This document shows, one piece after another, positions 2,266 to 57,787 of a stretch of DNA of 64,000 bases. The stretch comes from Dehalococcoidia bacterium (GTDB lineage Bacteria > Chloroflexota > Dehalococcoidia > Lucifugimonadales > VXLM01): the NCBI GenBank assembly GCA_965242665.1, contig OZ251484.1, positions 935,064 to 999,063 on the forward strand. Reading direction: 5' to 3'. The position numbers were made by a program, and so were the translations under genes. The notes beneath the pieces were generated by a model that saw nothing but the letters and a program-made list of their open reading frames with translations, made no database searches and had not been told where the DNA came from. Numbering within the stretch: the stretch's first letter is position 1; every line of letters starts with the position of its first letter.

Positions 2266-2269
2266 AGCC

Positions 2270-6023: not shown

Positions 6024-6029
6024 GAGCAT

Positions 6030-6362: not shown

Positions 6363-6370
6363 TGAACGTC

Positions 6371-6540: not shown

Positions 6541-6560
6541 ACAGCGAGGGGCAAGGAAAA

Positions 6561-9407: not shown

Positions 9408-9420
9408 GTTCGCGCGTAGG

Positions 9421-9560
9421 GGGGAATGACGGGGCAGGTTGACCGACCGCAACTCCGTCACTCCCCCACCCATGCCCAGGATGGATTCCCGCCTACGCGG
9501 GAATGACGGAGGCAGGTGTGGGAATGACGTGGGAGGGTGCGGGAATGGCTGGGGCGGTCG
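9421..9560. repeat. REP-like cluster (one full hairpin plus GGGAATGAC half-sites)
   Basis: Full hairpin GATTCCCGCCTACGCGGGAATGAC at 9484-9507. It is flanked by repeated GGGAATGACG(G/T) half-sites. Confidence 0.9.
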
Positions 9561-9568
9561 ATTCGCAG

Positions 9569-10447: not shown

Positions 10448-10449
10448 TT

Positions 10450-12287: not shown

Positions 12288-12315
12288 GATGGCCGGAGGG
12301 GGGCGGGACGCTGGA

Positions 12316-12822
12316 TCATCGATTCATCTCCACCTTGACGCGCGGCCATCTTCCATCCCTACCCTGCTCATTCGAAATGCCATCTACCGTGGAGACGCTC
12401 GTCGGAGCGCAGTCCGCGCACCTGCCAAATACGGCGATATGGTCGACGTCTGCCTCGAAGCCGTAGTCGTCCAGGATCTCTGCGCCGAGGCTGGCCATAT
12501 AGGCATGGTCCAGCTTGGTGAGGCTGCCGCAGTCGCGGCAAATCAGGTGATGGTGCCGGTCTTGGCGCAGCCATTCGTAGATCATTTCGCCTGCGCCGAC
12601 GTCGGTCTCGGAGATCAAGCGCAGCTTCTTGAGCACGCTCAGGGTGCGGTACACCGTCGAGGAGTCGATGTACGGATATGATTCACGGACGCGGTCGAGT
12701 ATTTCGGATGCAGTCATGTGACCGTCCGCGTGTCGGAGGGACGAGAGTATGAGAACGCGCTGGGGGGTCAAGCGGCGCCCGGAATCACGGAGGGTTTGGA
12801 CGGAGTGGTCTTCGCAGCTCAT
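12316..12822 (-). CDS. Fur-family metalloregulator (Zur-like by context)
   Basis: 'LTPQRVLILSSL..HMTASEILDRV' winged helix, 'HHHLICRDCG' and 'CADC' zinc sites. I prefer the ATG at 12822 over the TTG at 12849 that opens the tracked ORF. Confidence 0.8.
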   Translation of the reverse strand: MSCEDHSVQTLRDSGRRLTPQRVLILSSLRHADGHMTASEILDRVRESYPYIDSSTVYRTLSVLKKLRLISETDVGAGEMIYEWLRQDRHHHLICRDCGSLTKLDHAYMASLGAEILDDYGFEADVDHIAVFGRCADCAPTSVSTVDGISNEQGRDGRWPRVKVEMNR

Positions 12823-12970
12823 CGTTATTGCAAGTGGTTGCAGAAGCAAGGATACAGCATCGGCTGAGTAGTGTCAATAGCACGTCGGGGGTGGTTGTTC
12901 TCCCGGGGCAGTTCTGCGTTGGTCGATCGCGGCGCGGGTATGCGTGTGGATGCGGGGACGTCGGGCGCTG

Positions 12971-12994
12971 GATTCCCGCCTGCGCGGGAATGAC
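12971..12994. repeat. REP-like palindromic element
   Basis: GATTCCCGCCTGCGCGGGAATGAC. Confidence 0.9.
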
Positions 12995-13008
12995 GTAGAC
13001 AAAGGAAG

Positions 13009-13039
13009 TTGACAAAGTCAACCGCGATTCTGATATAAA
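13009..13039 (+). promoter_or_regulatory. sigma70-type promoter of the FG-GAP gene (copy 2)
   Basis: TTGACA (13009-13014), a 19-nt spacer and TATAAA (13034-13039). It is almost identical to 6333-6362. Confidence 0.6.
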
Positions 13040-13047
13040 GGAACGTC

Positions 13048-13067
13048 AGTAAGGCCTAGTAAGGCCT
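13048..13067. repeat. 10-bp repeat AGTAAGGCCT x2 (short allele of the 6371-6540 array)
   Basis: Two copies followed by the same ACAGCGAGGGGCAAGGAAAA-ATG leader as the paralog. Confidence 0.95.
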
Positions 13068-13087
13068 ACAGCGAGGGGCAAGGAAAA

Positions 13088-15913
13088 ATGTCTACCAGGT
13101 TCGTTCGTTTGCGGTCGGTCGTTGCGCTGGGCCTTCTCGGAGTGGTTGTCGCGCTGGCTGCGGGTTTCGCGACGGACGGGCTGGGGGCGTCGTCCTCAGG
13201 CGGCGGCGCGGGCTCTGGTTCGTGGGAGAACTCGTACGGGCCGCCAATCATTGAGGGCGCCGGACTCTTTCTGTCGAACTCTGCCGGCAGGTTTGGAACT
13301 TCGGCGGCCGTGAGTGCGGACGGAAGCACTATCGCCGTTGGAGCGCCCAATAACCCGAATCCCGGGGTATACGTGTTCACGAGGCCGTCCGGCGGATGGG
13401 GCGACGGAACGACGCCGACGGTCGTCAGAATCGCCGGGTCCGACACCGTATCGGGGCACGGTTTCGGGAGATCGGTAGCGGTGAGTAGAGACGGAAGCAC
13501 GATCGTCGTCGGGGCACCGGAGGTCGGTACTTTGGGCTCATGGAACCGGGGCGCGGCGTATGTGTTCACGAAGCCGTCCGGGGGATGGTCGACGTCGGCG
13601 ACATCCGCAAAATTTGCTCATTCGAACCCGAATCAGCACGATAGGTTTGGAAACTCGGTAGCGGTGAGCGCAGACGGAAACACGGTCGTCGTCGGGATAA
13701 AAGGGAGAGACCAAAGCGGCGTAACCAACCCCGGTGAGGCGTATGTGTTCACGAAGCCGTCCGGGGGATGGGTGGATGCGAATCAGACGGCGGGTGTCAG
13801 GCTAACTCGCAGTACTGCGAACCAGGAATTTGGGAAATCGGTGTCGATGAGCGAGGACGGCGACACGATCGTCGTGGGAACGGTTGCCGGGGCGGCGTAT
13901 GTGTACACGAAACCGGATGGAGGATGGTCGACGTCGGCCGCGTTCGCAACACTTACACAGAGAGACGCGACTGGAAACGATCGATTTGGGGAGAGCGCGA
14001 CGATGAGTGGGGACGGAGGCACTGTCGTCGTGGGAGCGTTTCAGGCCGACGGCAACGCGGCCACAAGCGGGGCGGCATATGTGTTCACGAAGCCGGCCTC
14101 AGGGTGGATGGCGACGTCGACGTCGGCCAAGCTGACGGCGGGCGACGGGGCGACAGGCAATCAATTCGGTCGGTCGCTGTCGGCGAACGCAGACGGGAGC
14201 ATGATTGCAATTGGAGAGCCGAACAGAGGCAGCGGGGCGGACAGGGGCGCCGTGCATCTGTTCGCGGTGCCGCAGGGGGGAAAGTGGATCACTACAACCA
14301 CGTCGGATCCCCTGTCCGTAACACTTCCCACGGAGACGGTGCTAGGCGAGCGAGGGGCCGAGGGATCCACCATTGGCATTGGCGGAAATGTGGTCGTAGT
14401 GGGAGCTCACAGCTCCGGGGTGGGGGGGAGGACCGGCGCGTGGGTCTACAACACGAAGCCTACGCCACCACCACCGACGGCAACACCCACACCGACGCCC
14501 ATACCGACGGCAACATCCATACCGCCGACACCAACAGGCGGAGAAGTCGCGCCGACACCAACACCAACGCCCACAGCGACGCCGGACGTGATACGACCGG
14601 AGGTCGGCCTGTCGACGAACTTCCTGACGTTCACGGCCGCGCAGGGCGGAGATGCGCCGGCGGCGCAGACGTTCACGGTGTGGAACACGATGCGGGATAC
14701 GGACATGCCGTTCACGCTGTCGTCGGACGCGAGCTGGCTGTCGTTCTCTCCGAGGACGGCGTCGTCGAACAGTCCGCAGGCGCGGGTGTCCGTGAGGGTA
14801 TCGGCGAACGCTTCCGGGCTCGCTGCGGGGACGCATAGGGGCAGTATCGCCATCAGCGCGCCAGGAGCGGAGAATACGCCGCGGATGGTGTTCGTCACGC
14901 TTGTCGTGACATCGCCGACGTCCGCGAGGGCGGCGGTGACGACGAACGAGGAGACGGAGATCACGACAGGGGATTCGACCGTTCAGCTGGTAGTGCCGGC
15001 TGGGGCCGCGCCGTCGAACGTGGATATACAAGTGACCAAGTTGGACGCCGCATCACCTGGCGCGCCGCCGGCCGATGCGGAGCGGGTGACACTCGCTGCG
15101 GAAGTGGAGACGTTCGCGTCCGGCAGTACCACGCCGACGCCGATGACCTACCCGCGCGGAGTTGATCTGCGGTTTGCGCTGCCGGCGGCCGATGCGTCTG
15201 CGTGCGTGGAGGGGCGCGTGCGGGTGTACTGGGTGAACGACGGCGAATGGACGCTGCTGGAGCATCGGTGCGAGACGGACGCTGCCGGCACGGTGTGGGC
15301 GGTGTCCACGCTGACACACTTCAGCACGTACGTCATGACGATAGACGACGCGCTTCCGACGCCGACGCCAGAGCCGACAGCGCCTCCGACGGCTACGCCA
15401 GTACCGACGGCCACATCCGCGCCGACAGCCGTGCCCACGGCAACGCCAGTGCCGGCAACCGCTACGCCAGTGCCGGCAACCGCTACGCCAGTGCCGACGG
15501 CCATACCGACGGCGACGCCTCGACCGGCAACCGCTACTCCCATACCGACGGCGACGCCTCGACCGGCAACCGCTACTCCCATACCAACGGCCAGGCCAAC
15601 GGCGACGCCCAGGCCTCCGACGTCTACGCCGGTGCCGACGGCCACATCCGTGCCAACGGCTGTGCCCACGGCAACGCCAGTGCCTCCAACTGCGACGCCC
15701 ATGCCCGCGGCGACGTTCACGCCTGTGCCTCCGGCGACTGCGGTGACTCAGGCCGTTCCCGAGCCGACGTCGACGCCGGTCGCTGAACCGGAGGTTGAAG
15801 ACGGCGGCGGGTTGAACATGGTCGTGATCATTGCGGTGGTTGTCGTGGTGGTGATTGCGGGTGCGGTGGCGGCCGCTGTGTACGTGCGGAGGGGCGGACT
15901 CGGCGGGGGGTAG
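13088..15913 (+). CDS. FG-GAP repeat surface protein, paralog of 6561..9407
   Basis: 941 aa with the same architecture as the paralog. The C-terminal two-thirds are nearly identical to the paralog, and the N-terminal propeller is clearly more diverged. Confidence 0.8.
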   Translation: MSTRFVRLRSVVALGLLGVVVALAAGFATDGLGASSSGGGAGSGSWENSYGPPIIEGAGLFLSNSAGRFGTSAAVSADGSTIAVGAPNNPNPGVYVFTRPSGGWGDGTTPTVVRIAGSDTVSGHGFGRSVAVSRDGSTIVVGAPEVGTLGSWNRGAAYVFTKPSGGWSTSATSAKFAHSNPNQHDRFGNSVAVSADGNTVVVGIKGRDQSGVTNPGEAYVFTKPSGGWVDANQTAGVRLTRSTANQEFGKSVSMSEDGDTIVVGTVAGAAYVYTKPDGGWSTSAAFATLTQRDATGNDRFGESATMSGDGGTVVVGAFQADGNAATSGAAYVFTKPASGWMATSTSAKLTAGDGATGNQFGRSLSANADGSMIAIGEPNRGSGADRGAVHLFAVPQGGKWITTTTSDPLSVTLPTETVLGERGAEGSTIGIGGNVVVVGAHSSGVGGRTGAWVYNTKPTPPPPTATPTPTPIPTATSIPPTPTGGEVAPTPTPTPTATPDVIRPEVGLSTNFLTFTAAQGGDAPAAQTFTVWNTMRDTDMPFTLSSDASWLSFSPRTASSNSPQARVSVRVSANASGLAAGTHRGSIAISAPGAENTPRMVFVTLVVTSPTSARAAVTTNEETEITTGDSTVQLVVPAGAAPSNVDIQVTKLDAASPGAPPADAERVTLAAEVETFASGSTTPTPMTYPRGVDLRFALPAADASACVEGRVRVYWVNDGEWTLLEHRCETDAAGTVWAVSTLTHFSTYVMTIDDALPTPTPEPTAPPTATPVPTATSAPTAVPTATPVPATATPVPATATPVPTAIPTATPRPATATPIPTATPRPATATPIPTARPTATPRPPTSTPVPTATSVPTAVPTATPVPPTATPMPAATFTPVPPATAVTQAVPEPTSTPVAEPEVEDGGGLNMVVIIAVVVVVVIAGAVAAAVYVRRGGLGGG

Positions 15914-15914: not shown

Positions 15915-16360
15915 TTGCCCGCGTAGGGGGGAATGCCTCGCTCCTGCGCCTTTGCGGAGAGGTAGCCCGTAGGTTCGCGCGCGTATGGGGGAATGACGGG
16001 GCAGGGCTTAGACCGCACCCACTCCGTCACTCCCCCGCCCAATAACCGCGGTGGATTCCCGCCTACGCGGGAATGACGGGAACAGGGGCGGGAATGTAGA
16101 CAGACAGGCATGACGGTAGACAGGGTAGATCGTACACCCCTACCCCCGTCATTCCCCCATCCATGCCCACGATGGATTCCCGCCTACGCGGGAATGACGG
16201 GAACAGGGACGACCGCACTCCTACTACCGTCACTCCCGCACCCGGTCTACGTCATGCCTGCACCCAACCACGTCACTCCCGCACCCGGTCTACGTCATGC
16301 CTGCACCCAACCACGTCACTCCCACAGCCACCCACGTCATTCCCGCGAAGGCGGGAATCT
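15915..16360. repeat. REP-like cluster with a 43-bp direct duplication
   Basis: Hairpins at 16054-16077 and 16175-16198 (CTAC loop) and at 16336-16359 (GAAG loop, opposite orientation). The 43-bp unit GTCACTCCCGCACCCGGTCTACGTCATGCCTGCACCCAACCAC is repeated at 16229 and 16272. Confidence 0.9.
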
Positions 16361-32879: not shown

Positions 32880-33323
32880 AATTCAATCTCCACCCACACC
32901 CCCACGTCATTCCCGCGTAGGCGGGAATCCACACCCACACCATTCCCACACACCCCCACGTCATTCCCGCGTAGGCGGGAATCCACACCCACACCATTCC
33001 CTCCCCCCCTCACGCCATTCCCGCGTAGGCGGGAATCCACACCCACGCCATCTCCGCACACTCCCACGTCATTCCCGCACCACCTCACGTCATTCCCACT
33101 CCCACCAACGTCATTCCCGCACCCTCCCACACCATTCCCACTCCCTCCCACGTCATTCCCGCACCCCCTCACATCATTCCCACTCCCCTCCCCCGTCATT
33201 CCCGCGTAGGCGGGAATCTAACGGCCTGCATGTCGACTGAATCCCAGGCTCCACTCGAACTATACGGAAGTTCCCTCCGCCGTTCAAGTCGCAGGGGGAG
33301 ATTCCCGCCTACGCGGGAATGAC
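32880..33323. repeat. REP-like cluster (5 full hairpins plus many half-sites)
   Basis: Hairpins at 32906-32929, 32960-32983, 33014-33037 and 33195-33218 (GTAG loop), and an inverted one at 33300-33323. CACGTCATTCCC(G/A)C half-site repeats lie between them. Confidence 0.95.
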
Positions 33324-33352
33324 GTAGACAGGGGCGGGAATCCGCCCGCCCC

Positions 33353-38389: not shown

Positions 38390-38462
38390 GAGCGCGTCGT
38401 CCTCTATTGGGATAATCCGGGCGTGATTGTACCACATGAAGGCGCGGACAGGAGCGCCCCCC

Positions 38463-38570
38463 GTCATTCCCCCGGGTCTCGTCATTCCCCCGGGTCTCGT
38501 CATTCCCCCGGGTCTCGTCATTCCCCCGGGTCTCGTCATTCCCCCGGGTCTCGTCATTCCCCCGGGTCTC
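38463..38570. repeat. 18-bp tandem repeat GTCATTCCCCCGGGTCTC x6
   Basis: Six perfect copies, followed by a seventh unit truncated into a canonical REP. It lies 75-180 nt upstream of the preferred start of the Type ISP-like gene. Read on the minus strand, each unit supplies an in-frame ATG, giving (MTRPGG)n. Confidence 0.95.
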
Positions 38571-38589
38571 GTCATTCCCGCCGCATCCC

Positions 38590-38613
38590 GTCATTCCCGC
38601 GTAGGCGGGAATC
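38590..38613. repeat. REP-like palindromic element
   Basis: GTCATTCCCGCGTAGGCGGGAATC. Confidence 0.9.
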
Positions 38614-40761: not shown

Positions 40762-41526
40762 TTATAGCAAACCACCCGCCGACCATTGAGATTGCAAGTT
40801 CGGCAGGCGTTCATTTGCAAATTGAGTGAATCCCAGCACTCTGGGATTATGAGGGTACTTGGATTTAACCTCATCAAGAACGACTAAATGCAATCTATGC
40901 TCTTCACAGATCCCATTAATGTGACCCTTTGTCACTTTTCGATCAACAGTGACAAGAAAAACGTTGGGAGCGCGCAAGCTGACAAGCTCAGCGACGACTT
41001 GCCGCCAGCGCTCGCGTAGTGTACGTTTTAGTGAGGCTACTGCACACACTGTACTGTTCTCATCAAACGCTGCATGGCTGGGCAGGATGAAATCAGTTCT
41101 ATGTTCGCGGTGCTGTTGTTCAAATGGGAAACAAGCTAACTGCAAGAGGTAAGCGAACTGAGATTCGAAGCTCTTACCTCCACGAGACATCCGGCTCTGT
41201 GATACTGATGAGAATTCTTTGCGCAACTCAGGATATAGGTGAGAAAAAAGAACAAATATACCTTCCTTGAAACCCCGAGTTCTACTAGCATTCTCAGCTA
41301 GATGAAGCTCATCAGGGTTGTTGTCGAGCAAGCGCTTGGGAATATCTACAGAATTAACCTTCTGTTCGTATTGCTCATATAGAGCGAACATATGGACTTC
41401 TATGTTGCGCATGATACAGTCGAATGACTCACGAACATCTTCATGGGACATCCGGTCGTAACCAAGTTCACTGATGACTTCACGCATAAGATCATCAGTA
41501 GATGGAATTTTCTGAATTCTACCCAT
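40762..41526 (-). CDS. putative Type II restriction endonuclease (PD-(D/E)xK-like)
   Basis: 254-aa ORF in the AT-rich island. It overlaps the upstream methyltransferase gene by 8 nt. 'RGGKSFESQFAYLL..TDFILP..ASLKRTLRERWRQ' is compatible with a D..(S/E)xK nuclease core. The call rests mainly on context. Confidence 0.5.
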   Translation of the reverse strand: MGRIQKIPSTDDLMREVISELGYDRMSHEDVRESFDCIMRNIEVHMFALYEQYEQKVNSVDIPKRLLDNNPDELHLAENASRTRGFKEGIFVLFSHLYPELRKEFSSVSQSRMSRGGKSFESQFAYLLQLACFPFEQQHREHRTDFILPSHAAFDENSTVCAVASLKRTLRERWRQVVAELVSLRAPNVFLVTVDRKVTKGHINGICEEHRLHLVVLDEVKSKYPHNPRVLGFTQFANERLPNLQSQWSAGGLL

Positions 41527-42427
41527 TGAAAGGCCGTTGAAAGTCCAGTATATACTCGAAGGTTGTCCCCATCGTGATGTAGTTGCTAGGCCATCCGAAG
41601 ATGCCTATTCGGTTCACGATATTGGTTCTGTCCCAAATGATAATGTTCTTGAACAGGTATCCTGCCTTCTGCATCGCCTGAATTACGATGCTGTGCAAAG
41701 CAATACGTTGATCCTTTTGCCAGAGGTCATTCACGTTGATAACGCAGTGACCTCCCGGCTTGAGTATGGGAAGTAAATCAGCGTATATCTCCTCTATCGA
41801 CTTCCCATAACTGATAGGCTCTAGCGTTCCCAGATCTCGAACGTCTTGAGAATACTGCTCTACTTTCCCGAATTGCGGATTGTGTCTGTCAACACTACGT
41901 CGACTCTTATTGGTGCGCTGACGATTTAGCATGTTCGCATAAGGAGGCGATGCGAAGAAGAGCTTGACAGAATCAGGAGAAAAGTAACTCGAGAGATTTC
42001 TGGCATCTTGGACTATGGCTATCTGCTTGGATTCATGAGACACGGGAAGTCCAAGCCGTTGTTGGCTGAGAGTGATGTAGTCCTCAGAGAGGTCAGCGCC
42101 TACAGCATTCCGATCCAGCTCCCTTGCAGCAACTAGAGTAGTGCCACTGCCAACAAAGGGGTCAACTACGAGTTCCCCCTTATGTGTGAACATCTTGATA
42201 ACCTGGTGTGCTAGGGCAATCGGAAAGGTAGCGGGATGCACACTCTTATCCCGTATATCCTTGCTGCTGTAGCTAAACCTCCATACTCCCACTTGACTCT
42301 TTATCCATTCTTTCGCAGTCATACAGCTGAGATGTTTGGGCGGGCAACTGCAGGTTCGCTGGGAAGCGATGTCTATTGGTAGGTTGGATGGTAGTGTATG
42401 AGTTGATACTTTTGTCGCTAGTGTCAC
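41519..42427 (-). CDS. DNA methyltransferase (N4-C/N6-A type, SPPY motif)
   Basis: 'HPATFPIALAHQVIKMF..LVVDPFVGSGTTLVAA' (AdoMet site) precedes 'LFFASPPYANM' (catalytic). This is the opposite order to ORF 48..1376. The gene is AT-rich. The start may be the internal Met at 42322. Confidence 0.85.
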   Translation of the reverse strand: MTLATKVSTHTLPSNLPIDIASQRTCSCPPKHLSCMTAKEWIKSQVGVWRFSYSSKDIRDKSVHPATFPIALAHQVIKMFTHKGELVVDPFVGSGTTLVAARELDRNAVGADLSEDYITLSQQRLGLPVSHESKQIAIVQDARNLSSYFSPDSVKLFFASPPYANMLNRQRTNKSRRSVDRHNPQFGKVEQYSQDVRDLGTLEPISYGKSIEEIYADLLPILKPGGHCVINVNDLWQKDQRIALHSIVIQAMQKAGYLFKNIIIWDRTNIVNRIGIFGWPSNYITMGTTFEYILDFQRPFNG

Positions 42428-48647: not shown

Positions 48648-50576
48648 ATGACGACTAGCCGGATACCGGACCTCCGCATCCCTCCCGCCATGACCAAGCT
48701 GGCAGCGTGGATACGCCCGACGACCGACGACGCGCGCGAACTGCCGCTGACGCACCGACTGGCCATAGCCTACCTCATGCTGCCCGTGGTCATCTGGCTA
48801 GTCGGCTGGTTCGAGTGGTGGGTCGGTATTCCAGCCGTGATCCTCCTAATCGCAGCCTTCTGGCATGTGGTATCCGGCACGTGGCGCAAGAAGCTGCCCG
48901 CCACCGCGGCCGCAGTGATTGCAACGGCCGCCTGCTGGGTAATGGTGACGGCCGCAGGCGGCGTGTTCGACACACAGAACGGAGATTGGGCGCACCATCG
49001 CACGACGCACCTCGATCTCGGCCGCTATCCCTGGCCTACCTTCCTGCCGTCCCCTCTTGCCGAATTCACATCAGACGAAGACTACTCCCCCCCTCTCCTG
49101 CGTTACTATCTCGGCTACTACATAGCGCCGGCCCTGGCCGCGCAGTGGCTGGGACTCGGCGCCATGAATTGGGCCGTGCCCCTCTGGACATGGATCGGAG
49201 TCGCCCTCATCCTCCTCTTGTTCACGCGCGAACGGCGCGGCTGGGGCATCGCACTGGCCACAGTGTTCTTCATCCTCTTCAGCGGCATGGACATCCTCAG
49301 AGTATTAGTGTGGGAAGGGTGGGGCTGGATCGACCTAGACATCAAACGAGGAGGATTGCCCGGTCTCAGCGTCGGGAGCGACCACATCGAATGGGAATGG
49401 CTCTGGGGCAAGACGCAATACCCGTCCAACATGACGAGCCTGATGTGGGCTCCTCAGCACTTCATCCCGGCCGGACTGTACGTCCTATTGATGCTGCAAC
49501 TTCGCCGGCATCGGCGCTTCTTGGCGGTGAGCGGCGTCCTCGCGGCAGCCGGCCTGTTCTGGTCCGCATTCGTCCCCATCGGACTACTCCCCCTGATAGC
49601 AGCGCTGCTCTGGGAAAACGGCATCCGCCCATTCCTCCGCTGGCCAAACCTCCTGCTCGCAGCGCCCCTGGCCGCCCTCATCACGTTGTACCTGACCAGC
49701 GGATCGACAGACTTCCCAAGCGGCTGGATATGGGAAGGGAACGATTGGGCGTCCATGATCCGGTGGGTGCCATCGTTCTATCTGTCTGAGTTCCTCCTGC
49801 TCGTCATCCTGCTACTGATTGTACGACCCGAGTTGCGCCGTGAACCATTCTTCATCGCGTCCGCCGCAACCCTAATCCTCCTCCCCGTATACCATTTCGG
49901 CATCGCCAACGACTTGACGACACGCGCCTCCTTGCCCTCCCTCATCCTGCTCTGCTGGTACTGCGCGGAGACCATCATAGAGCACTTGCGTACAAGAACG
50001 TATCTCCAGTGGAGGTACTCCATCGCCATCGCCTGCATCGTCGCTATCCTGGCCATCGGCTCAGTCACCGCGTTCATCGAACTCACGCGCGCTCAGCGAA
50101 ATGACGGCTGGAGGTTCCTGCACGAGAAGGCCAACAATACCGCCATGCTCGACCTATCTGAGGAGTGGCTAGCGGTGAAAACCGCCTACGACATCCCTGC
50201 ATCCCTCCGGCTCCTCTTGGAGGACGTCGCCCCTCAACCAAGGTACGAAAGATGGGATTTGATCATCCAATCCAAATTCGACATCTATCTCGTCGAGAAT
50301 AGATTGATGTACGTCAAGGAACCATGCACGAGAGCGGATACCGAGCCCCGCTTCTTCTTGCACGTCATCCCAGTCGACCAAGCAGACCTCCCAGGAGACC
50401 GCAAACAGCACGGCTTCGATAACCTCGACTTCGGATTCGGGGACAGATTCCTATCCGACGGCCTATGCTTCTTGCCTAAGGATCTCCCATACTATGGGGT
50501 TGCTAGAATCGTAACCGGGCAATTCACGAGCGACGGACGAATATGGAGCGGCGAGGCAATTCTCAACGACGAGTAG
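48648..50576 (+). CDS. large polytopic membrane protein (hypothetical)
   Basis: 642 aa with about 12 hydrophobic helices followed by a ~160-aa soluble C-terminal domain. I recognise no motif. Confidence 0.6.
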   Translation: MTTSRIPDLRIPPAMTKLAAWIRPTTDDARELPLTHRLAIAYLMLPVVIWLVGWFEWWVGIPAVILLIAAFWHVVSGTWRKKLPATAAAVIATAACWVMVTAAGGVFDTQNGDWAHHRTTHLDLGRYPWPTFLPSPLAEFTSDEDYSPPLLRYYLGYYIAPALAAQWLGLGAMNWAVPLWTWIGVALILLLFTRERRGWGIALATVFFILFSGMDILRVLVWEGWGWIDLDIKRGGLPGLSVGSDHIEWEWLWGKTQYPSNMTSLMWAPQHFIPAGLYVLLMLQLRRHRRFLAVSGVLAAAGLFWSAFVPIGLLPLIAALLWENGIRPFLRWPNLLLAAPLAALITLYLTSGSTDFPSGWIWEGNDWASMIRWVPSFYLSEFLLLVILLLIVRPELRREPFFIASAATLILLPVYHFGIANDLTTRASLPSLILLCWYCAETIIEHLRTRTYLQWRYSIAIACIVAILAIGSVTAFIELTRAQRNDGWRFLHEKANNTAMLDLSEEWLAVKTAYDIPASLRLLLEDVAPQPRYERWDLIIQSKFDIYLVENRLMYVKEPCTRADTEPRFFLHVIPVDQADLPGDRKQHGFDNLDFGFGDRFLSDGLCFLPKDLPYYGVARIVTGQFTSDGRIWSGEAILNDE

Positions 50577-50722
50577 CCGCAGCCTGAAGCTGCCCATACC
50601 CTCCTGAGTCTCGGCCGCTCCCTCACCAACCTTTGAATCTCCGAATCGAGTACAATAGCCCCTACCTTCCAAAGACGAACCGAAACCCATCGACCAACGA
50701 GTCGACCACAAGGAGCACTGAC

Positions 50723-52291
50723 ATGCCGTCCCAACCCCAACCCCTGCCGCTGATATTCACCGACGACGCCTGGATCATGAGCGAGAAGCCTCCCGTGACC
50801 CCGGAAACGATCCGCGAAAAGATGATCCGCCCCCTCGAAGGAATGTCCGCCGCCCTCTGGTGGTCGGTCGGCGACCACGAAGTCTACCACCACGAAACCC
50901 AGATCGGAGAGATCATGGGAGACGGATACGACCTATCCGACCTCGAAGAACGCTCCCGTTGGAAAGCGCAAAACGTCCGCAGCCTCATGGAAACCGACGA
51001 GGGGCCGGTGACCGTCATCGCCTCCCTCTGCCGCGAAGCAGGCATCGAGTTCATCCCCCGCGTCCGCATGAACAGCCACTACGCATACTTCATGCCGCCC
51101 TATGCAAAATCCTACAGCCCAGAATACGGCAAGTTCCGACAAGAACACCCAAACCTCCTCATCGGACGACCAGACGAAGACATCCCAAAGGGAACGATCG
51201 ACTGGGACATCCGAACAGGCAAGGACTACGCCTATCCCGCCGTCCGCGACTACATGTACTCCATCATCACCGAGCTGTTCGAACGCTTCGACGTCGACGG
51301 CGTAGAGATGGACTTCAACCGGCATCCCGCCATGTTTCGCCGCGAGGAAGCCTACCAAAACCGCTATCTGATGACCGACCTCGTGAGCCGCGTGCGAACA
51401 CGGATGAACGAAGTAGGCGCAGAGCGCGGGCGCACCCTCAAGCTGGGCGTCCGCGTTCCCCCGACCCTCGCAGACTCGGCCAGAATCGGCCTGGACGTCC
51501 GCAGATGGATCGCAGACGGACTAGTCGACGTCGTTGCCGCCGGAGTCGGCTGGATCCCCTTCGAGATGCCCATTGCCGAATTCGTAGAAGCCGCGCGCGG
51601 AACCAATACCAGCGTCTACGGATGCCTCGAATCCCTACGCCCACTCATAGACGACAACGCACTCAAAGCCGCCGCATACCGCTACTGGCGCGCAGGCGTA
51701 GACGGAATCTACCTCTACAACTACTTCACCATGTCCCCACAATGGATCCACCGCACCCTCCCGCAACTGGCCAACCCCAACGCCCTCGCACGCGCAGACA
51801 AACGCTACGAAGCCGACCACGCAGACCGCATCGGATACGGCGGACACGGCGGCGCCTTCAGAAACGCCGTCCCCGCAGCGCAACTCCCCATCACCCTAGC
51901 GCAGACCGCCTCCGACCGCGGACCAGTCGTGCGCATCGAAATCGCAGACGACCTCGACCGCGCGACAGCAGAGGAAACCCTCGGGCGCTGCACCTTGGGA
52001 ATCACCATCGCCCGCACCGTACCCGACGACGAATTCGACGTCCTCCTGAACGGAACCGTCCTCCCATGGGGAACCGGACGCACCGTATCCACCGAAACCG
52101 GGCCCACATGGCCCACCTTCGCCCGAACCATCGGCCTCCAATACGACATCGAAAGCCCCCCCCTGCGGCAAGGCATCAACGAAGTGGAAATCCGCCGCAC
52201 GACGCCCGCCGCCAACCACCAAGAACCCCCAACCCTCACAAACGTCGAAATCACCATAACCTACCTCGACCCGGAGCCCCCTCGACCATGA
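50723..52291 (+). CDS. hypothetical TIM-barrel glycoside-hydrolase-like protein
   Basis: I prefer the ATG at 50723, which has AAGGAG 7 nt upstream. 'FDVDGVEMDFNRHP' and 'GVDGIYLYNYF' resemble GHL10-type barrels. Low certainty. Confidence 0.45.
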   Translation: MPSQPQPLPLIFTDDAWIMSEKPPVTPETIREKMIRPLEGMSAALWWSVGDHEVYHHETQIGEIMGDGYDLSDLEERSRWKAQNVRSLMETDEGPVTVIASLCREAGIEFIPRVRMNSHYAYFMPPYAKSYSPEYGKFRQEHPNLLIGRPDEDIPKGTIDWDIRTGKDYAYPAVRDYMYSIITELFERFDVDGVEMDFNRHPAMFRREEAYQNRYLMTDLVSRVRTRMNEVGAERGRTLKLGVRVPPTLADSARIGLDVRRWIADGLVDVVAAGVGWIPFEMPIAEFVEAARGTNTSVYGCLESLRPLIDDNALKAAAYRYWRAGVDGIYLYNYFTMSPQWIHRTLPQLANPNALARADKRYEADHADRIGYGGHGGAFRNAVPAAQLPITLAQTASDRGPVVRIEIADDLDRATAEETLGRCTLGITIARTVPDDEFDVLLNGTVLPWGTGRTVSTETGPTWPTFARTIGLQYDIESPPLRQGINEVEIRRTTPAANHQEPPTLTNVEITITYLDPEPPRP

Positions 52292-52299
52292 GCCACCTC

Positions 52300-52575
52300 C
52301 CCGGGGTATCGTCATTCCCACCCTACCTACGTCATCCCCCGGGGGCTCGTCATTCCCACCCCGCCTACGTCATTCCCGCGTAGGCGGGAATCTCCCTACA
52401 GGCCTAGTCCAAGCTCAGTGTCACCCACGTCACTCCCGCACCCTCCCACGTCATTCCCGCGTAGGCGGGAATCTCCCTACAGGCCTAGTCCAAGCTCAGT
52501 GTCACCCACATCACTCCCACACCCTCCCACGTCATTCCCGCACCCTCCCACGTCATTCCCGCGTAGGCGGGAATC
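52300..52575. repeat. REP-like cluster including an 81-bp tandem duplication
   Basis: Hairpins at 52369-52392, 52450-52473 and 52552-52575. The unit GTCATTCCCGCGTAGGCGGGAATCTCCCTACAGGCCTAGTCCAAGCTCAGTGTCACCCAC... is repeated with an 81-bp period. Confidence 0.95.
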
Positions 52576-52665
52576 CCCCACAGCAAACGAAACCCGCACC
52601 CCCTTGACACGCCTCCCCATGATGTGTATCATACATACACATACCCACTCCCAAAGGACACTCCA

Positions 52666-52941
52666 ATGGCCAGGGTTCAACTCATAATCCCCGACGAAGA
52701 CCGCGACCGCTTCGCACATCAGGCGCGCAGCGAAGGCCTAACCTTCAGCGCTTGGATGCGCACCGCCGCACGACAACGCCTCGAAGAACGCCAACTCGCA
52801 CAACGATTCGACTCCCCACAAGACCTCCACCAATTCCTCGATGAATGCGCCGCACGACGAGGCCCAGGCATCGAACCAGATTGGGAAGAGCACAAGCGCG
52901 CAATCGGCGAATCACGCCTCCACGGCCTCCCCAGCGTATGA
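52666..52941 (+). CDS. vapB: ribbon-helix-helix antitoxin (VapB/CopG-like)
   Basis: 'MARVQLIIPDEDRDRFAHQARSEGLTFSAWMRTAA' is an RHH pattern. AGGA lies upstream. Its stop overlaps the next ATG (ATGA). Confidence 0.75.
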   Translation: MARVQLIIPDEDRDRFAHQARSEGLTFSAWMRTAARQRLEERQLAQRFDSPQDLHQFLDECAARRGPGIEPDWEEHKRAIGESRLHGLPSV

Positions 52942-53336
52942 TCTTCGTCGACTCCAACGTCTTCATGTACGCAGTCGGAAAACCCCACGCGCTCCGATCC
53001 CCAGCCGTGCAGTTCTTCACCGACGCCATCCACAGACGCAAACCCCTCGCCACATCCGCAGAAGTCCTCCAAGAACTGACCCACGTCTACCTCCGCGCAG
53101 GAAGAACCGACACCCTAGACGACGCCCTCACCCTCATCTCCAGAGCAGGCGTGGAAGTATGGCCCCTAGAAGAAGCAGACGTCACCCTCGCACGCCAACT
53201 CCACGACCGCTACCCCGCACTAGAAGCCAGAGACCTCTGCCACCTCGCCAGCTGCCGACGCAGAGGCATCCAAGAAATCATGACATTCGACCAAGCCCTC
53301 GCAAACGCATCCCCAACGACCAACCCCCGGCCATGA
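52938..53336 (+). CDS. vapC: PIN-domain toxin VapC
   Basis: 132 aa. 'MIFVDSNVFMY' (first Asp), 'SAEVLQEL', 'EARDLCHLA' and 'IMTFD' give the four acidic PIN positions. Its stop overlaps the hsdS ATG (ATGA). Confidence 0.85.
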   Translation: MIFVDSNVFMYAVGKPHALRSPAVQFFTDAIHRRKPLATSAEVLQELTHVYLRAGRTDTLDDALTLISRAGVEVWPLEEADVTLARQLHDRYPALEARDLCHLASCRRRGIQEIMTFDQALANASPTTNPRP

Positions 53337-54640
53337 CCGACCGCCCCCCTCTCCTCCCGTCATACCCCGAATACAAACCCTCCGGCATCCCATGGCTCGA
53401 CGAAATCCCCGTGCACTGGGAAGCGTGGCGGCTGAAAACAGTCTGCCGGTTGGCCTACGGAAATACCCTTACGGCAGAGATGCGGGTAGAAGGGCCGGTG
53501 CCCGTATACGGATCGAACGGACAGATTGGGGTTCATTCATCGGCAAATACAAACGCCCCGTGCATAATTGTTGGACGCAAAGGATCATTCGGTAAAGTCA
53601 ACTATTCGGAGGAGCCTGTTTTCGCAATTGACACAGCGTTCTTCGTAGATGACCGTTATACCAATGCCGATTTGCGATGGCTGTATTACTATCTCGTCTG
53701 GTTGAAACTCGATGCCGCCTCCCGTGATTCGGCGATACCCGGTCTCAACCGTCAGGAAGCATATCGGAGAGTAGGGCCAATCCCGCCCCCCGAAGAACAA
53801 GCCGCTATCGCCCGCTACCTCACCCACAAAGACGCCCTCATCCAACGCTTCCTCAAGGGCAAACAGCGGATGCTCGACCTACTCAAACAACTCCGCAAAT
53901 CCACCATCCACTACGCAGTCATACACGGACTCGACCCCAAGAATACGCCGATGAAGCCCTCCGGCATCCAATGGATCGACGAAATCCCCGCGCACTGGCA
54001 AACGATTCCACTGAAGTTCTGGGTGCGAATTAATCAAGCAGTACTGTCAGAAAACACCGATCCAAACTATGAATTTCGATACATCGACATAGGTTCGATT
54101 GGCACAGGAGTCAGGGTGGAAGAACCGGAGAAAATGCGCTTTGCGACCGCGCCCTCACGCGCAAGGCGTATCGTCCGCAACGGCGACACGATATTCTCCA
54201 CTGTGCGGACATACTTGAAGGCAGTCTGGTTCGCTGACGATCCTGGCGACGACCTCATATGCTCGACCGGATTTGCAGTGTTTACTCCTCGTCAAAATAG
54301 CTCCCCAAAGTTCGTGAGTTACGTAGCTCAAAGCGACGCATTTATCAACCGGGTAACTGCCAATTCTGTTGGAGTAACATACCCTGCAATCTCCAAGTCT
54401 CGATTGGGATCGCTTCGCATCCCGGTCCCACCCATCGAGGAGCAGGAAGCCATCGCCGAATACCTCGACGATAAGATCGCCAAGATAGACGCCGCCATCG
54501 CCGGCACCAGCCGCCTCATCGACCTAATGCGACAGTACCGCAAGAGCCTCATCCACGAAGTCGTCACTGGCGTCCGCGACGTCCGCAAAGCCGCCGCCGC
54601 CATCCCCCCCGCCCCCCCTCCCGACCCACCCACCTCCTAG
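53333..54640 (+). CDS. hsdS: Type I restriction-modification specificity subunit HsdS (two target-recognition domains)
   Basis: 435 aa from the ATG at 53333. The 599-aa tracked ORF is an upstream over-extension. It has two half-repeats, 'IPWLDEIPVHWEAWRLK..' and 'IQWIDEIPAHWQTIPLK..'. Each is followed by a conserved helix: 'PPPEEQAAIARYLTHKDALIQRFL..LLKQLRKSTIHYAV' and 'PPIEEQEAIAEYLDDKIAKIDAAI..LMRQYRKSLIHEVV'. Confidence 0.9.
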   Translation: MTDRPPLLPSYPEYKPSGIPWLDEIPVHWEAWRLKTVCRLAYGNTLTAEMRVEGPVPVYGSNGQIGVHSSANTNAPCIIVGRKGSFGKVNYSEEPVFAIDTAFFVDDRYTNADLRWLYYYLVWLKLDAASRDSAIPGLNRQEAYRRVGPIPPPEEQAAIARYLTHKDALIQRFLKGKQRMLDLLKQLRKSTIHYAVIHGLDPKNTPMKPSGIQWIDEIPAHWQTIPLKFWVRINQAVLSENTDPNYEFRYIDIGSIGTGVRVEEPEKMRFATAPSRARRIVRNGDTIFSTVRTYLKAVWFADDPGDDLICSTGFAVFTPRQNSSPKFVSYVAQSDAFINRVTANSVGVTYPAISKSRLGSLRIPVPPIEEQEAIAEYLDDKIAKIDAAIAGTSRLIDLMRQYRKSLIHEVVTGVRDVRKAAAAIPPAPPPDPPTS

Positions 54641-54793
54641 CCCCCGCCCCCCCCGTCACTCTCACTCTGTCCCCGTCACTCCCACCCCGTCTACGTCATT
54701 CCCGTACCCTCCCACCTTATTCCCGCCCCGTCTACGTCATTCCCGCACCCTCCTAACGTCATTCCCGCGTAGGCGGGAATCTCATCCCCGCAT

Positions 54794-54935
54794 CGCATTT
54801 GACAAAACAGAACCCACGTACTATCCTAGACCCATGGCCACTCCAACCAAACTACAGCCCAAGGAGAACATCTTGCAATCCCCAATCCCCAATCCCCAAT
54901 CATCAATCCACAATCATCAATTCCCAATCTCTCCC
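54794..54935 (+). repeat. promoter-bearing repeated element, copy B (3'-truncated)
   Basis: TTGACA at 54799-54804 with the same -10 region, AAGGAG and a CAATC(C/A)N repeat run as copies A and C. It ends in a REP half-site. Confidence 0.6.
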
Positions 54936-55002
54936 ACGTCATTCTCGCACCCTCCTACGTCATTCCCGCGTAGGCGGGAATCTCCCCCGTCTCGCATTTG
55001 AC

Positions 55003-55200
55003 AAAACAGAACCCACGTACTATCCTAGACCCATGGCCACTCCAACCAAACCACACCCCAAGGAGGACACCTTGCAATCCCCAATCTGCAATCATCAATT
55101 CCCCAACTCGCCGTCTACAAAATTCGACAGAATACGACAAAATGCGACAGAAACTCGTGCGCGCGCGTACCCTAATCCACGCGCACGCACGCGCGAGGCT
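55003..55200 (+). repeat. promoter-bearing repeated element, copy C (candidate small RNA)
   Basis: TTGACA at 55008-55013, 209 bp after copy B. The AAGGAGG, CAATC-run, (A/T)TCGACAGAA-type motifs and CGACAGAAACTCGTGCGCGC tail are shared with copy A. Confidence 0.6.
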
Positions 55201-55681
55201 TGGAACCCCCTTGCCCCCACATCACTCCCGCACCCACGTCATTCCCGCACCCTCCCACGCCATTCCCGCCCTACCCACGTCACTCCCGCACCCTCCCACG
55301 TCATTCCCGCACCCTCCCACGTCATTCCCGCACCCTCCCACGTCATTCCCGCGTAGGCGGGAATCCAGACGCCGCGCCCACCCAGCGAACCTCTACAATG
55401 GAAGAACCCAAAACATGGCACAATGAACTCTACGCGGCCCGCGCACTGGTCGAAGCCGCTGCCGAACGAAGCAACCCAGGGGAAGAACGACCATTTCTAC
55501 GATTCGCCGCATCCGAAAAGCATGGCCAATCGCCGCGCTCTCCCTCGCGTCGATCTTCCTGTCCGCAAACGACACGTTCTCGCCAAACCCGGCACAGCGC
55601 GCCGCCTTCCAATACCGATACAGCATCACCGCCTGGGAGTTCCAAAACCTGCCGGACAAGTGGCTCCACAAACTGACGTCC

Positions 55682-57787
55682 ATGCTCCCCTGGAACCGCA
55701 AGACACAGGCGCAGAAGATCGCGGACACCGTGCGCTATTTCACCCTCGGCAGAGAACTGGCCGCGGCGAACGCCGCCCTCGACCGCTCGATGTCCAATCG
55801 AACCGCGGACGAAAGCGCCCGCCTCCATGCCGAAGTAGACCGTATCGCAGCAGAGAGAATGTCCATCAGGGACGGCGTGGAGGAGACGATGGAGAGCGCA
55901 ATCAGCGCGGTCGTTCAGGAAATTGGACTTGGCTGGCGCGCAGACATCGTCTTCCCCCCGGTAGATATCCGACTCGGCAGCGCCCCCGCCGTCCTATTGA
56001 CCTCCCCCCGCAGCCGCATCGAACGGCAGCACGAAGCGCTCCTAGAACCAGGCGTCACCCTAGCCGTCCGCGAACGCCTCGAAAACCAACTCATGGCCCA
56101 AGACGACTCCACCTCCGCGGCAACCTTCCAAATATCAGGCCTCGCAACCTATCCCGCGTCCGTCATAGACACCATTCCCCTAGCCGACGCCTTCCGAGTA
56201 GCCGGCCACGAATGGACGCACCACTATATGGCCTTCCGTCCCCTCGGAAGGAAGATGTTTACCTCGCCAGAGATGGTCGCATTGAACGAAACCACGGCAG
56301 ACATCATAGGCAGGGAACTCGGCGACAGAGCGCACGAATTCCTACTCGACAGCGCCGAACTTCCACCAGCCCCGATCCCGCCGCCACCGGCCCCCGCAGC
56401 CGACGCCGACGAAAGACAAGAGCATTTCGACTTCACCGCCGAGATGCGAACGACCCGCCTCCGAGTGGACGATCTGTTGTCCGAGGGCAAAGTCGACGAG
56501 GCAGAAGAGTACATGGAAGAACGCCGCCTCCTCTTCGTGCGGAACGGGTTCCCAATTAGACGGCTGAACCAAGCATACTTCGCCTTCCACGGCACATACG
56601 CCGGAAGCGCGGCGTCATCCAGCCCCATCGGAGGACAACTGTCCCGCTTCCGCGAACTGACGCCCGACCTCCGCGCATTCGCAGTCGAAATGTCCCAGAT
56701 AGGAAGCTACCGGCAGTTCCTCGACGAACTGCAAGCTTGGGAATCGGAGAGCGAAGCGGTAGGCGCGAATATCGCAGGCGCGTCTCACCCCATCGCCCGC
56801 CCAATCGCAAGCCCCCCGAACGCCGCCAACAACCCGACAGCGACACTCGCCCCAAGATTCAGGCCTGCACGCCCAAAATCACCGCCCTCGATCCCCTGGG
56901 TCACCGCCACGGCGAGCGTCGAAAACGTCGTGTACGACCCAAGAAACCCGACAGCGAGGAACAACTTGTACTCGAATGGAAAATCTGGACGCGACTCCCA
57001 AAGCCCAAGCAGCACGCCCAAGAGCAGAGACCCGGTGACATTGGCGGCGAACGTGCCGACCAGAGACGACCCGATGAATTTCACGACTGCAAGATTCACC
57101 GCATGGCGGGCCACCGCCCCAAGCGCGCCGCCGCCGGCAACGAACACCCACTCGAGCACGAACGTTCCTCCCAATATCAACGCACGGTCCGAACGCGGCC
57201 GCCAAAGCTGCCGGCTATCCGATAACGTCCTTCGTACTTGGAATGCCCCCCGCCCTGCGCGGGTCGCGCTCGGAAGCCGCCCGCAAAGCGCGAGCCAAAG
57301 CCTTGAAGACCGCCTCGGCCTTATGATGGTTGTTGGCGCCGTACAACAGCCTGACGTGAAGGTTGAACTTGCCCTCATGGGCAAAGCTCTCCAAGAAGTG
57401 CCCGATCAAGCTCCCCGAAAGCCCTCCGAGATCCGCTTCCCCAATGTCCGCATCGATCACCGCATACCCCCGCCCTCCGAGATCGACCGCAGCGAACGCA
57501 AGCGTCTCATCGAGAGGAACGAAGGCGTGCGCAGTGCGGGTTATCCCCCGTGCATCACCGAGCGCATCCCGCAAGACCCTGCCCAAGGAAATCGCAGTGT
57601 CCTCAACCAAGTGATGCCAACCAACATGCGAATCTCCCTCGGCCGCGACCTCCAGATCGATCAGCCCATGCCTCGAAATCTGAGCAAGCAGATGATCGAA
57701 CATCCCGCAGCCCGTCTCGATGCGGTATTCACCCGTCCCGTCGAGGTCGACCGACACCGAAACCCGCGTCTCGGACGTCTCGCGTGA
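55682..57787 (+). CDS. hypothetical HExxH (zinc-metallopeptidase-like) protein; both ends of the reading frame are unresolved
   Basis: The first ~360 aa look genuine ('VAGHEWTHHYMAF', 'LNQAYFAFHGTYAG'). The last ~340 aa of the 701-aa ORF are antisense to crcB and hisB and are probably not real. An in-frame TM-like segment lies upstream of the first ATG. See findings. Confidence 0.4.
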   Translation: MLPWNRKTQAQKIADTVRYFTLGRELAAANAALDRSMSNRTADESARLHAEVDRIAAERMSIRDGVEETMESAISAVVQEIGLGWRADIVFPPVDIRLGSAPAVLLTSPRSRIERQHEALLEPGVTLAVRERLENQLMAQDDSTSAATFQISGLATYPASVIDTIPLADAFRVAGHEWTHHYMAFRPLGRKMFTSPEMVALNETTADIIGRELGDRAHEFLLDSAELPPAPIPPPPAPAADADERQEHFDFTAEMRTTRLRVDDLLSEGKVDEAEEYMEERRLLFVRNGFPIRRLNQAYFAFHGTYAGSAASSSPIGGQLSRFRELTPDLRAFAVEMSQIGSYRQFLDELQAWESESEAVGANIAGASHPIARPIASPPNAANNPTATLAPRFRPARPKSPPSIPWVTATASVENVVYDPRNPTARNNLYSNGKSGRDSQSPSSTPKSRDPVTLAANVPTRDDPMNFTTARFTAWRATAPSAPPPATNTHSSTNVPPNINARSERGRQSCRLSDNVLRTWNAPRPARVALGSRPQSASQSLEDRLGLMMVVGAVQQPDVKVELALMGKALQEVPDQAPRKPSEIRFPNVRIDHRIPPPSEIDRSERKRLIERNEGVRSAGYPPCITERIPQDPAQGNRSVLNQVMPTNMRISLGRDLQIDQPMPRNLSKQMIEHPAARLDAVFTRPVEVDRHRNPRLGRLA
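56785..57159 (-). CDS. crcB: fluoride ion channel CrcB
   Basis: I prefer the GTG at 57159, which has GGGAGG 7 nt upstream (124 aa). 'GGGALGAVARH', 'GTFAANVTGSLLLG' and 'GFLGSYTTFSTL'. Confidence 0.85.
   Translation of the reverse strand: MLEWVFVAGGGALGAVARHAVNLAVVKFIGSSLVGTFAANVTGSLLLGVLLGLWESRPDFPFEYKLFLAVGFLGSYTTFSTLAVAVTQGIEGGDFGRAGLNLGASVAVGLLAAFGGLAIGRAMG

Follow-up and report, generated by a model that had tools for sequence, protein, structure and literature searches.

In the present work, we have analysed a three-gene cassette, vapB-vapC-hsdS, located at positions 52666 to 54640 of a 64-kb stretch of the genome of a Dehalococcoidia bacterium (contig OZ251484.1, positions 935,064 to 999,063 of the forward strand; hereafter, "the window"), where a VapBC toxin-antitoxin (TA) pair is directly followed by a gene for HsdS, the specificity subunit of Type I restriction-modification (R-M) systems. 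Our preferred reading, to which we assign a probability of roughly 0.6, is that this hsdS gene encodes an auxiliary, "orphan" specificity subunit that would serve HsdM and HsdR subunits encoded at a distance, and that it forms the third gene of a vapB-vapC-hsdS operon.

According to this reading, the orphan HsdS, which carries two target-recognition domains (TRDs) that we designate as types A and B, would join HsdM2 and HsdR2 encoded elsewhere on the 3.48-Mb chromosome, adding to the target of the primary HsdS (TRDs A and C) a second bipartite target that has one half-site in common with it; the gene would have arisen by duplication of the primary hsdS and would go on swapping TRDs with a shared pool, through recombination in the conserved regions and in a 51-nt repeat, which would make it a strain-variable specificity locus. 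The vapBC pair would supply hsdS, which has neither a Shine-Dalgarno (SD) sequence nor a promoter of its own, with a strong, probably autoregulated promoter and with translational coupling, and it might lend the segment some protection against deletion. The original prediction, made from the letters of the window, had proposed that the TA pair stabilises a spare specificity gene that retargets an hsdMR pair encoded elsewhere; the core of this proposal is supported by the HsdM and HsdR that are recorded on a contig of the same length, by the regions that are near-identical to those of a paralog and by purifying selection, while the stabilising role, together with the co-transcription of the three genes, the assembly with distant HsdM/HsdR and the binding of VapB to an inverted repeat, is something that we infer from sequence. 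In what follows, homologous loci are denoted by L numbers and proteins by P numbers.

The cassette and its probable partners elsewhere in the genome

The three genes of the cassette are arranged as follows:

52666-52941, + strand: vapB, antitoxin of 91 aa with a putative N-terminal ribbon-helix-helix (RHH)-like DNA-binding part
52938-53336, + strand: vapC, PIN-domain toxin of 132 aa
53333-54640, + strand: hsdS, full-length Type I specificity subunit of 435 aa, 100% identical to protein P0001

According to both the open reading frame (ORF) map and the sequence, the vapB stop and the vapC start share the motif ATGA at 52938-52941, i.e. a 4-nt overlap, and the vapC stop and the hsdS start share the same motif at 53333-53336; the positions agree with those of the two overlaps of the original prediction. 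The HsdS protein matches the Pfam family PF01420 (E=8e-22) in two stretches, covers the PADLOC profile Specificity_I practically from end to end (E=8e-91, residues 8-422 on profile positions 3-444 of 448) and aligns with its homologues along its entire length, in agreement with the earlier description of a full-length subunit with two TRDs; it also matches the HsdS chains 3okg and 5ybb of the Protein Data Bank (PDB) at E ~1e-32. Its coding sequence is divided into the following parts:

53333-53425, + strand: N-terminal conserved region (aa 1-31), host-like composition, holding a copy of the 51-nt repeat at 53375-53425
53426-53776, + strand: TRD1, type A (aa 32-148), GC 0.52, foreign codon style
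53777-53998, + strand: central conserved region (aa 149-222), host-like, its 3' part being the second repeat copy at 53954-54004
53999-54424, + strand: TRD2, type B (aa 223-364), GC 0.51, foreign codon style
54425-54640, + strand: C-terminal conserved region (aa 365-435), with a proline-rich tail

This is the only hsdS gene in the whole window, and the canonical hsdM-hsdS-hsdR adjacency does not occur around it: a phmmer search of all six-frame ORFs of the window with queries from a related locus has returned no HsdM or HsdR homologue at E<=1e-4, in accordance with what had been noted from the sequence. The potential partners are found elsewhere. VapB (P0307), VapC (P0294) and HsdS (P0001) are recorded at NCBI and ENA on a contig of 3,476,543 bp, and a contig of this same length is recorded for a second HsdS (P0005), an HsdM (P0267, 694 aa) and an HsdR (P0270, 1000 aa); hsdM, hsdR and other hsdS alleles are among the genes that the original prediction had suggested looking for in the rest of the genome. 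P0267 and P0270 fall in the 90% clusters of the HsdM and the HsdR of locus L003, from a related strain, where the main Type I locus (239-14636) is a small defence island: the order of its genes is hsdM, ThsB-TIR, PDC-M50A, hsdS (of the P0005 type), an M78 peptidase, DUF4411 and hsdR, followed by cas3 and cse1. The 90% clusters of the TIR, PDC-M50A, M78 and DUF4411 proteins of L003 have no member on the contig of the window genome, so the embedded cargo probably differs there.

The comparison of the two HsdS proteins of this genome, P0001 and P0005, has revealed an overall amino acid identity of 67% that is very unevenly distributed: the identity amounts to 97% in the N-terminal conserved region, 98% in TRD1, 89% in the central conserved region and 85% in the C-terminal conserved region, and it falls to 17% in TRD2, which is of type C in P0005. 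Since the orphan HsdS (A+B) and the primary HsdS (A+C) have their HsdM-contacting conserved regions and their TRD1 in common, the orphan should assemble with the same HsdM2 and HsdR2. At the nucleotide level, positions 1-672 of the window hsdS are 95.5% identical to the main-locus hsdS of L003 and the C-terminal conserved part is 87.5% identical to it; a homologous non-coding element, moreover, sits 3' of both genes (just after the main-locus hsdS of L003, at ~4719-5022). The gene is likely to have originated when the primary hsdS was duplicated and TRD2 was then replaced.

The ratios of nonsynonymous to synonymous substitutions (dN/dS) between the window and the related locus L001 are 0.17 for vapB, 0.28 for vapC and 0.22 for hsdS, with values of 0.13-0.16 for the TRDs and of 0.12-0.35 for the neighbouring genes; the low ratio of hsdS indicates that the orphan gene is maintained by selection. 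The original prediction was to fail if the genome lacked hsdM altogether and hsdS showed relaxed selection or decay in relatives; an HsdM (P0267) is recorded on a contig of the same length, and dN/dS is low.

Exchange of target-recognition domains between strains and loci

Both TRDs are compositionally foreign. Their GC content (0.52 and 0.51) is below that of the conserved HsdS parts (0.59-0.67), reaching exactly 45% in line 53581-53640, so the earlier impression that the TRDs are AT-richer is correct; moreover, T occupies the third codon position at a frequency of 0.21-0.22 in the TRDs, versus 0.00-0.05 in vapB, vapC, the conserved HsdS parts and one flanking gene, and 0.03-0.09 across three flanking genes. 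In host-style genes, measured over 48648-57787, the third position is C at ~0.5-0.7 and T at ~0.00-0.09, with G far under C; owing to this bias, the GC skew of the coding strand is strongly negative, and the extremity of the bias makes horizontally acquired segments, e.g. both TRDs, stand out. The 51-nt repeat is present once before each TRD (53375-53425, gene nt 43-93, and 53954-54004, gene nt 622-672; the copies are 88% identical), and the repeat is thus a possible substrate for the movement of TRDs between the two positions.

The operon is syntenic in L001, L002 and L167, in a conserved neighbourhood (recG … lactonase … GHL10-like, vapB-vapC-hsdS, … hisB, hisC, hisD); L170 has the same upstream neighbours and its contig ends inside hsdS. 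Sponge-associated taxa occur among the related HsdS loci, and the lineage, an uncultured one, is, to judge by these relatives and by the annotations of the VapC matches, probably one of sponge-associated Chloroflexota. The TRD combinations of the orphan and the main loci are as follows:

Window: orphan, TRDs A+B
L001: orphan, ~88-90% nt identical to the window, TRDs A+B
L002: orphan, flanks 96-99% identical to the window, TRDs C+B
L166: vapC 3' end followed by hsdS, TRDs D+B (D being a fourth TRD type)
L167: orphan, TRDs C+A (type A in position 2)
P0005 and L003: main locus, TRDs A+C

The homology of L002 to the window is interrupted between 53436 and 53783, from which it follows that TRD1 has been replaced. 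The TRD1 of L002, of type C, is 87.5% identical over 519 nt to TRD2 of the main locus of L003; the same TRD can therefore occupy either position and either locus. TRD2 of type B is common to the orphan alleles of L001, L002 and L166 and to the HsdS of L165, which has a different upstream context: in L165 (100-2240), the position of vapBC, ahead of an HsdS with a new TRD1 and a type-B TRD2, is taken by the PADLOC candidate pair PDC-M32A/PDC-M32B, i.e. different small cassettes fill the slot upstream of closely related hsdS genes. Because of the pseudo-symmetry of HsdS, a reversed order of the TRDs (A+C versus C+A) should give an equal double-stranded target.

The exchange of TRDs, which we have seen between strains only, raises the possibility that the orphan hsdS is mainly a TRD reservoir, i.e. 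a donor and acceptor for the primary hsdS that resembles the silent hsdS' copies of phase-variable systems and whose own expression is incidental. The two loci do draw on one pool of TRDs (A, B and C), they have in common the 672-nt tract of ~95% identity, the 51-nt repeat stands before each TRD and the combinations at this site vary by strain. We nevertheless consider a mere reservoir unlikely: the reading frame of the gene is complete, the operon to which it is coupled looks expressed, and the TRDs themselves are under the purifying selection that is expected of an expressed protein, even if the same selection would also fit a reservoir that is in use. Among those neighbours of L001 and L002 that have Pfam matches, no recombinase family is found, several other neighbours having no match at all. 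The copies within the genome have not been homogenised, either; in the central and C-terminal regions, P0005 resembles its ortholog P0121 more closely than it does P0001, and we have accordingly found recent gene conversion between the two same-genome copies to be unsupported.

The vapBC pair, its promoter and the surrounding repeats

VapC is a PIN-domain protein (Pfam PF01850, E=1e-18), whose residues D5, E42, D99 and D118 are invariant in 15 homologues; their catalytic role has been assigned by eye, and a search of the PDB at the sequence level has not found a relative. VapB scores under the Pfam threshold (RHH_1, E=0.003) and its PDB profile matches are weak, but the families that are matched by the 21 members of its own family are all of the RHH type: NikA-like in 13/21 and RHH_1 in 9/21, in addition to RHH_5, DUF6290 and PSK_trans_fac. 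Neither protein matches a PADLOC defence model. The VapC family comprises 1,797 proteins at E<=1e-5, many of which are 65-76% identical to the VapC of the window and some of which are annotated as Chloroflexi VapC; in 76 of 80 vapC loci from metagenomes, with VapC homologues of 52-70% identity, a VapB homologue is located upstream. By these sequence criteria, vapBC is an ordinary, self-contained type II TA module, which belongs to a widespread family that is seen in Chloroflexi metagenome-assembled genomes (MAGs) and in many metagenomes, and is resident at its chromosomal site. The density of such modules in Chloroflexi genomes is illustrated by L171, from a Chloroflexi MAG, where a second PIN gene (128 aa), another 91-aa ORF and a 306-aa ORF are located at 8454-10151, less than 4 kb from the vapBC homologue.

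Two regulatory elements precede vapB:

52604-52632, + strand: sigma-70-like promoter TTGACA-17-TATCAT, with 11/12 consensus matches, conserved in L001 and L002
52622-52642, + strand: perfect inverted repeat ATGTGTAT-N5-ATACACAT, with 8-nt arms, over the -10 box, conserved in L001 and L002

The block of homology between the window and L001 begins at 52599, at this promoter. Within 52624-52637, 13 positions are invariant, including in the region upstream of the vapB gene of L022, a locus from Binatia; in-frame upstream peptides from other loci of the family (MYHIYT, MYKLYT) hint at a similar sequence, as judged by eye and from the peptides only. The conservation is suggestive of an operator for VapB or VapBC, for which the inverted repeat is our candidate. 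Between vapB and the end of hsdS there is no other promoter with at least 10/12 matches, the sole weaker one (9/12) being located inside TRD1 at 53540, and an SD-like AAGGA is seen, by eye, upstream of vapB only, vapC and hsdS being devoid of such a sequence. From this arrangement we infer a single transcript, autoregulated by VapB or VapBC, from which vapC and hsdS would be translated by termination-reinitiation.

If the operator were to act on all three genes, it might gate the specificity of the Type I enzyme: repression by the VapB-VapC complex would normally keep the orphan HsdS at a low level, and degradation of VapB upon stress or phage infection would derepress the operon and give VapC and, by translational coupling, a burst of HsdS that retargets the enzyme; alternatively, the TA pair might render a methylation specificity "addictive". 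Both ideas are speculative extensions of the operon model, and we hold them to be quite improbable.

The generality of the association between vapBC and hsdS has been explored from both sides. On the side of vapBC, none of the 80 metagenome loci, 58 of which have at least 600 nt downstream, contains an hsd gene (HsdS, HsdM or HsdR) beside the VapC homologue, and a vapBC pair that is 76% identical, in a Chloroflexi MAG, is likewise found without hsdS; the adjacency of hsdS is therefore lineage-specific. A survey of this adjacency had been called for in the original prediction; the arrangement is kept in related strains and is absent from the 80 surveyed loci of the vapBC family.

On the side of HsdS, a survey of 80 diverse loci, in which the best match is 57% identical to the HsdS of the window, has shown HsdM and/or HsdR within 10 kb in nearly all of them; four (L024, L030, L050 and L083) have no recognisable hsdM or hsdR and two (L023 and L046) have hsdM fragments only. 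The upstream neighbours of fewer than 351 aa (n=43) include PIN proteins (L029, L048), DUF4411 (L004), Fic/Doc, HicA, AbiEii, TIR, RhuM and PD-(D/E)XK. A PIN gene lies upstream of hsdS in 2 of the 76 surveyed loci that have an upstream ORF on the same strand, in addition to the one DUF4411 gene. As to an enrichment of PIN genes at this position, which we have also considered, 2/76 is not clearly above chance given how abundant vapBC modules are, an expectation that is a matter of judgement and has not been computed. In L048, the order is hsdM-vapB-vapC-hsdS, with an AbrB-type VapB and with overlap, and in L022 a VapB homologue of 62% identity, a vapB remnant, is situated directly before hsdS in a complete locus. 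Judging from these gene neighbourhoods, a TA module adjoining hsdS is a recurrent but non-specific theme, in agreement with published accounts of embedding in Type I loci, and the link of this particular vapBC family to hsdS appears confined to the present lineage, save for the vapB remnant of L022.

The loci with a PIN or vapBC gene directly before hsdS (L048, L029 and, with DUF4411, L004), as well as the complete locus of L022 with its VapB homologue, are what could be expected if a former Type I locus with an embedded vapBC had left the cassette as an inert remnant, kept only since vapBC resists deletion. This explanation, whose core, a remnant of a disrupted Type I locus, had also been put forward in the original prediction, is in our view very doubtful as an account of the present state of the cassette: its ORFs are intact and under purifying selection (dN/dS of 0.22 for hsdS, lower still in the TRDs), its TRDs continue to be replaced, no fragments of hsdM or hsdR occur in the 64 kb, and the flanks consist of housekeeping genes in conserved synteny. 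As a description of the origin of the cassette, "remnant" may perhaps fit.

A further suggestion of the original prediction, in which HsdS or a Type I complex would restrain VapC or act as a sensor for it, with phage attack freeing the PIN RNase in the manner of PrrC-like abortive infection, could draw on the tight overlap of the three genes in three lineages. PrrC and RloC, with which such a mechanism would be compared, are ABC-ATPase and anticodon-nuclease proteins encoded between hsd genes, and they belong to a toxin family that is consistently associated with Type I systems. The VapC of the window, on the other hand, is a PIN protein of 132 aa that has its own conserved antitoxin, retained in 76 of the 80 homologous loci; it lacks a PADLOC defence model, as does VapB, and hsd genes are absent from the vicinity of all 80 loci and of the 76%-identical Chloroflexi pair. 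The vapBC pair also occurs at the same site without hsdS, and the frequency of PIN genes before hsdS in the survey is about what the abundance of vapBC would predict, by the same uncomputed judgement. The confinement of the vapBC-hsdS link to one lineage argues against a mechanistic coupling of this kind, and we regard it as highly improbable.

Several observations weigh against the orphan-subunit reading, or at least against parts of it. The central and C-terminal conserved regions diverge by 11-15% from those of the primary HsdS, which could weaken the assembly with HsdM, and the adjacency of hsdM, the second hsdS and hsdR in the window genome is extrapolated from L003, their presence in this genome being deduced from the identical length and source of the contig. 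The translational coupling is not universal: L167 has a 9-nt gap in place of the ATGA overlap between vapC and hsdS. L168 and L169 carry vapBC at the syntenic site without hsdS; their VapC is identical to that of L167, and they can be aligned with the window up to 12 nt after the hsdS ATG, where unrelated sequence takes over, from which we conclude that hsdS is a variable add-on to a resident vapBC, dispensable at this site in at least one strain. A role of vapBC beyond the supply of a promoter is, finally, unsupported, given that hsd genes adjoin none of the homologous vapBC loci. In L168 (6400-6836, identical in L169), the vapC stop is followed by an ORF of 63 aa, rich in Glu, Lys and Gln and preceded by GGAGG; the contig of L168 ends ~440 nt beyond vapC.

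Clusters of repetitive extragenic palindromic (REP)-like sequences had been noted on both sides of the cassette, and both are present:

52299-52579, + strand: upstream REP-like array, with units of 21, 38 and 81 nt that end in the hairpin TTCCCGCGTAGGCGGGAAT
54651-55365, + strand: downstream REP-like arrays and a 199-nt tandem duplication, with copies at 54786-54900 and 54985-55099

The length of the upstream array varies between strains, and its spacing differs in L001 and L002. The hairpin TTCCCGCGTAGGCGGGAAT recurs at no fewer than nine other intergenic sites across the window, so the bracketing of the cassette by REPs is generic to intergenic regions. We have, for this reason, rejected the bracketing as the mark of a mobile cassette; the boundary seen in L168 and L169, moreover, is located near the start of hsdS and not at the REPs.

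The REP-like family is genome-wide and consists of C-rich units of ~21 nt (CCCACGTCATTCCCGCACCCT) ending in TTCCCGCGTAGGCGGGAAT, in tandem arrays that often have a period of 18-90 nt. Apart from the two arrays listed above, its sites include 5614-6023 (a 90-nt unit in 4.6 copies, with 99% identity), 9409-9530, 12972-12996, 15916-16358, 32895-33325 and 38462-38612. Related REPs occur in L003 and L165, and L022 has different REP-like repeats by an IS200/RAYT-like ORF (8641-9225, with the HUH motif "PNHMHGII", assigned by eye). Beside the first of these arrays, the intergenic segment 6371-6541 is a perfect tandem repeat of the 10-mer AGTAAGGCCT, in 17.1 copies with 100% identity. Each copy of the 199-nt duplication has TTGACA-17-TATCCT at its start, a 14-nt microrepeat of the CAATCCC type next to it and the REP hairpin at its end; its predicted fold is marginally better than those of shuffled sequences (z=-1.98), and an Rfam search has not found a known RNA in the window, this element included. 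The duplicated element, which is homologous to the one that follows the main-locus hsdS of L003, might correspond to a small transcript or to a REP-associated unit that is mobile. Elsewhere in the window, which has ~60% GC, the stretch 41001-42000 has a GC content of 0.456 (0.55 and 0.54 in the neighbouring kilobases), overlaps the minus-strand ORFs 40762-41526 and 41519-42427, and is possibly horizontally acquired.

Relation to known systems

Orphan HsdS subunits that use distantly encoded HsdM/HsdR have been described (PMC12418389), among them the stand-alone hsdS genes of Lactococcus lactis, which combine with separate HsdM/HsdR (Schouler 1998 and O'Sullivan 2000, as cited in PMC12418389). 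The hsdS of the window resembles the lactococcal genes in being complete and devoid of an adjacent hsdM or hsdR, in having conserved regions that match those of the resident system, in the specificity that it would add and in the shuffling of its TRDs. It differs from them in its location, since the lactococcal genes are on plasmids and the present one is in a housekeeping neighbourhood of the chromosome, in being the third cistron of a vapBC operon, and in that its activity is predicted from sequence.

Systems with duplicated, variable hsdS genes switch their specificity by recombination (Atack et al. 2020, as cited in PMC12418389). With the multi-hsdS systems, such as the pneumococcal ivr and tvr loci, the present case has in common the conserved repeats that flank exchangeable TRDs and a population that is polymorphic for TRD combinations. 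Those phase-variable systems are characterised by adjacent hsdS copies, repeats and a site-specific recombinase, whereas here a lone hsdS is found in the window, the copies are far apart, the variation is between strains, and neither a dedicated recombinase nor an inverted-repeat architecture is seen among the Pfam-matched neighbours. The pneumococcal tvr locus carries TA homologues as well (phd-doc, tvrAT), which regulate a recombinase (PMC6265443); here, the TA pair precedes hsdS.

Embedded genes are common in Type I loci (10.1101/2024.01.29.577857, the "guilt by embedding" preprint of Payne et al. 2024); TgvAB of Vibrio cholerae is an example (PMC11411939). The present cassette is similar to the embedded genes TgvAB and PrrC in that a small toxin or defence cassette lies directly beside hsdS, but those genes are found within complete hsdM-hsdS-hsdR loci, whereas in the window hsdS stands alone with its TA pair. 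Like canonical VapBC modules, the pair has overlapping antitoxin and toxin genes, an antitoxin that is probably of the RHH type, four invariant acidic residues in its PIN toxin and a palindrome over the promoter; what appears to set it apart is the unrelated third gene, hsdS, that is coupled to its 3' end in this lineage.

Across the related strains, TRDs are seen to be replaced and to change position between two loci in a clean natural series (A+B, C+B, D+B, C+A and A+C). The auxiliary specificity gene, a chromosomal one, apparently borrows the promoter of a TA module. If the TA promoter does control hsdS, the arrangement would offer the cell a simple means of regulating the number of specificities used by its single Type I enzyme; otherwise, its value lies mainly in annotation, in that a lone hsdS of this kind is to be counted with a distant system and not as a pseudogene or as a new defence system. 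Orphan hsdS genes, the shuffling of TRDs and TA modules near Type I loci are each documented, and the cassette is not a new system; what is new, as far as the sequence allows it to be read, is the arrangement, with an orphan hsdS that is chromosomal and forms the third cistron of an operon with vapBC.

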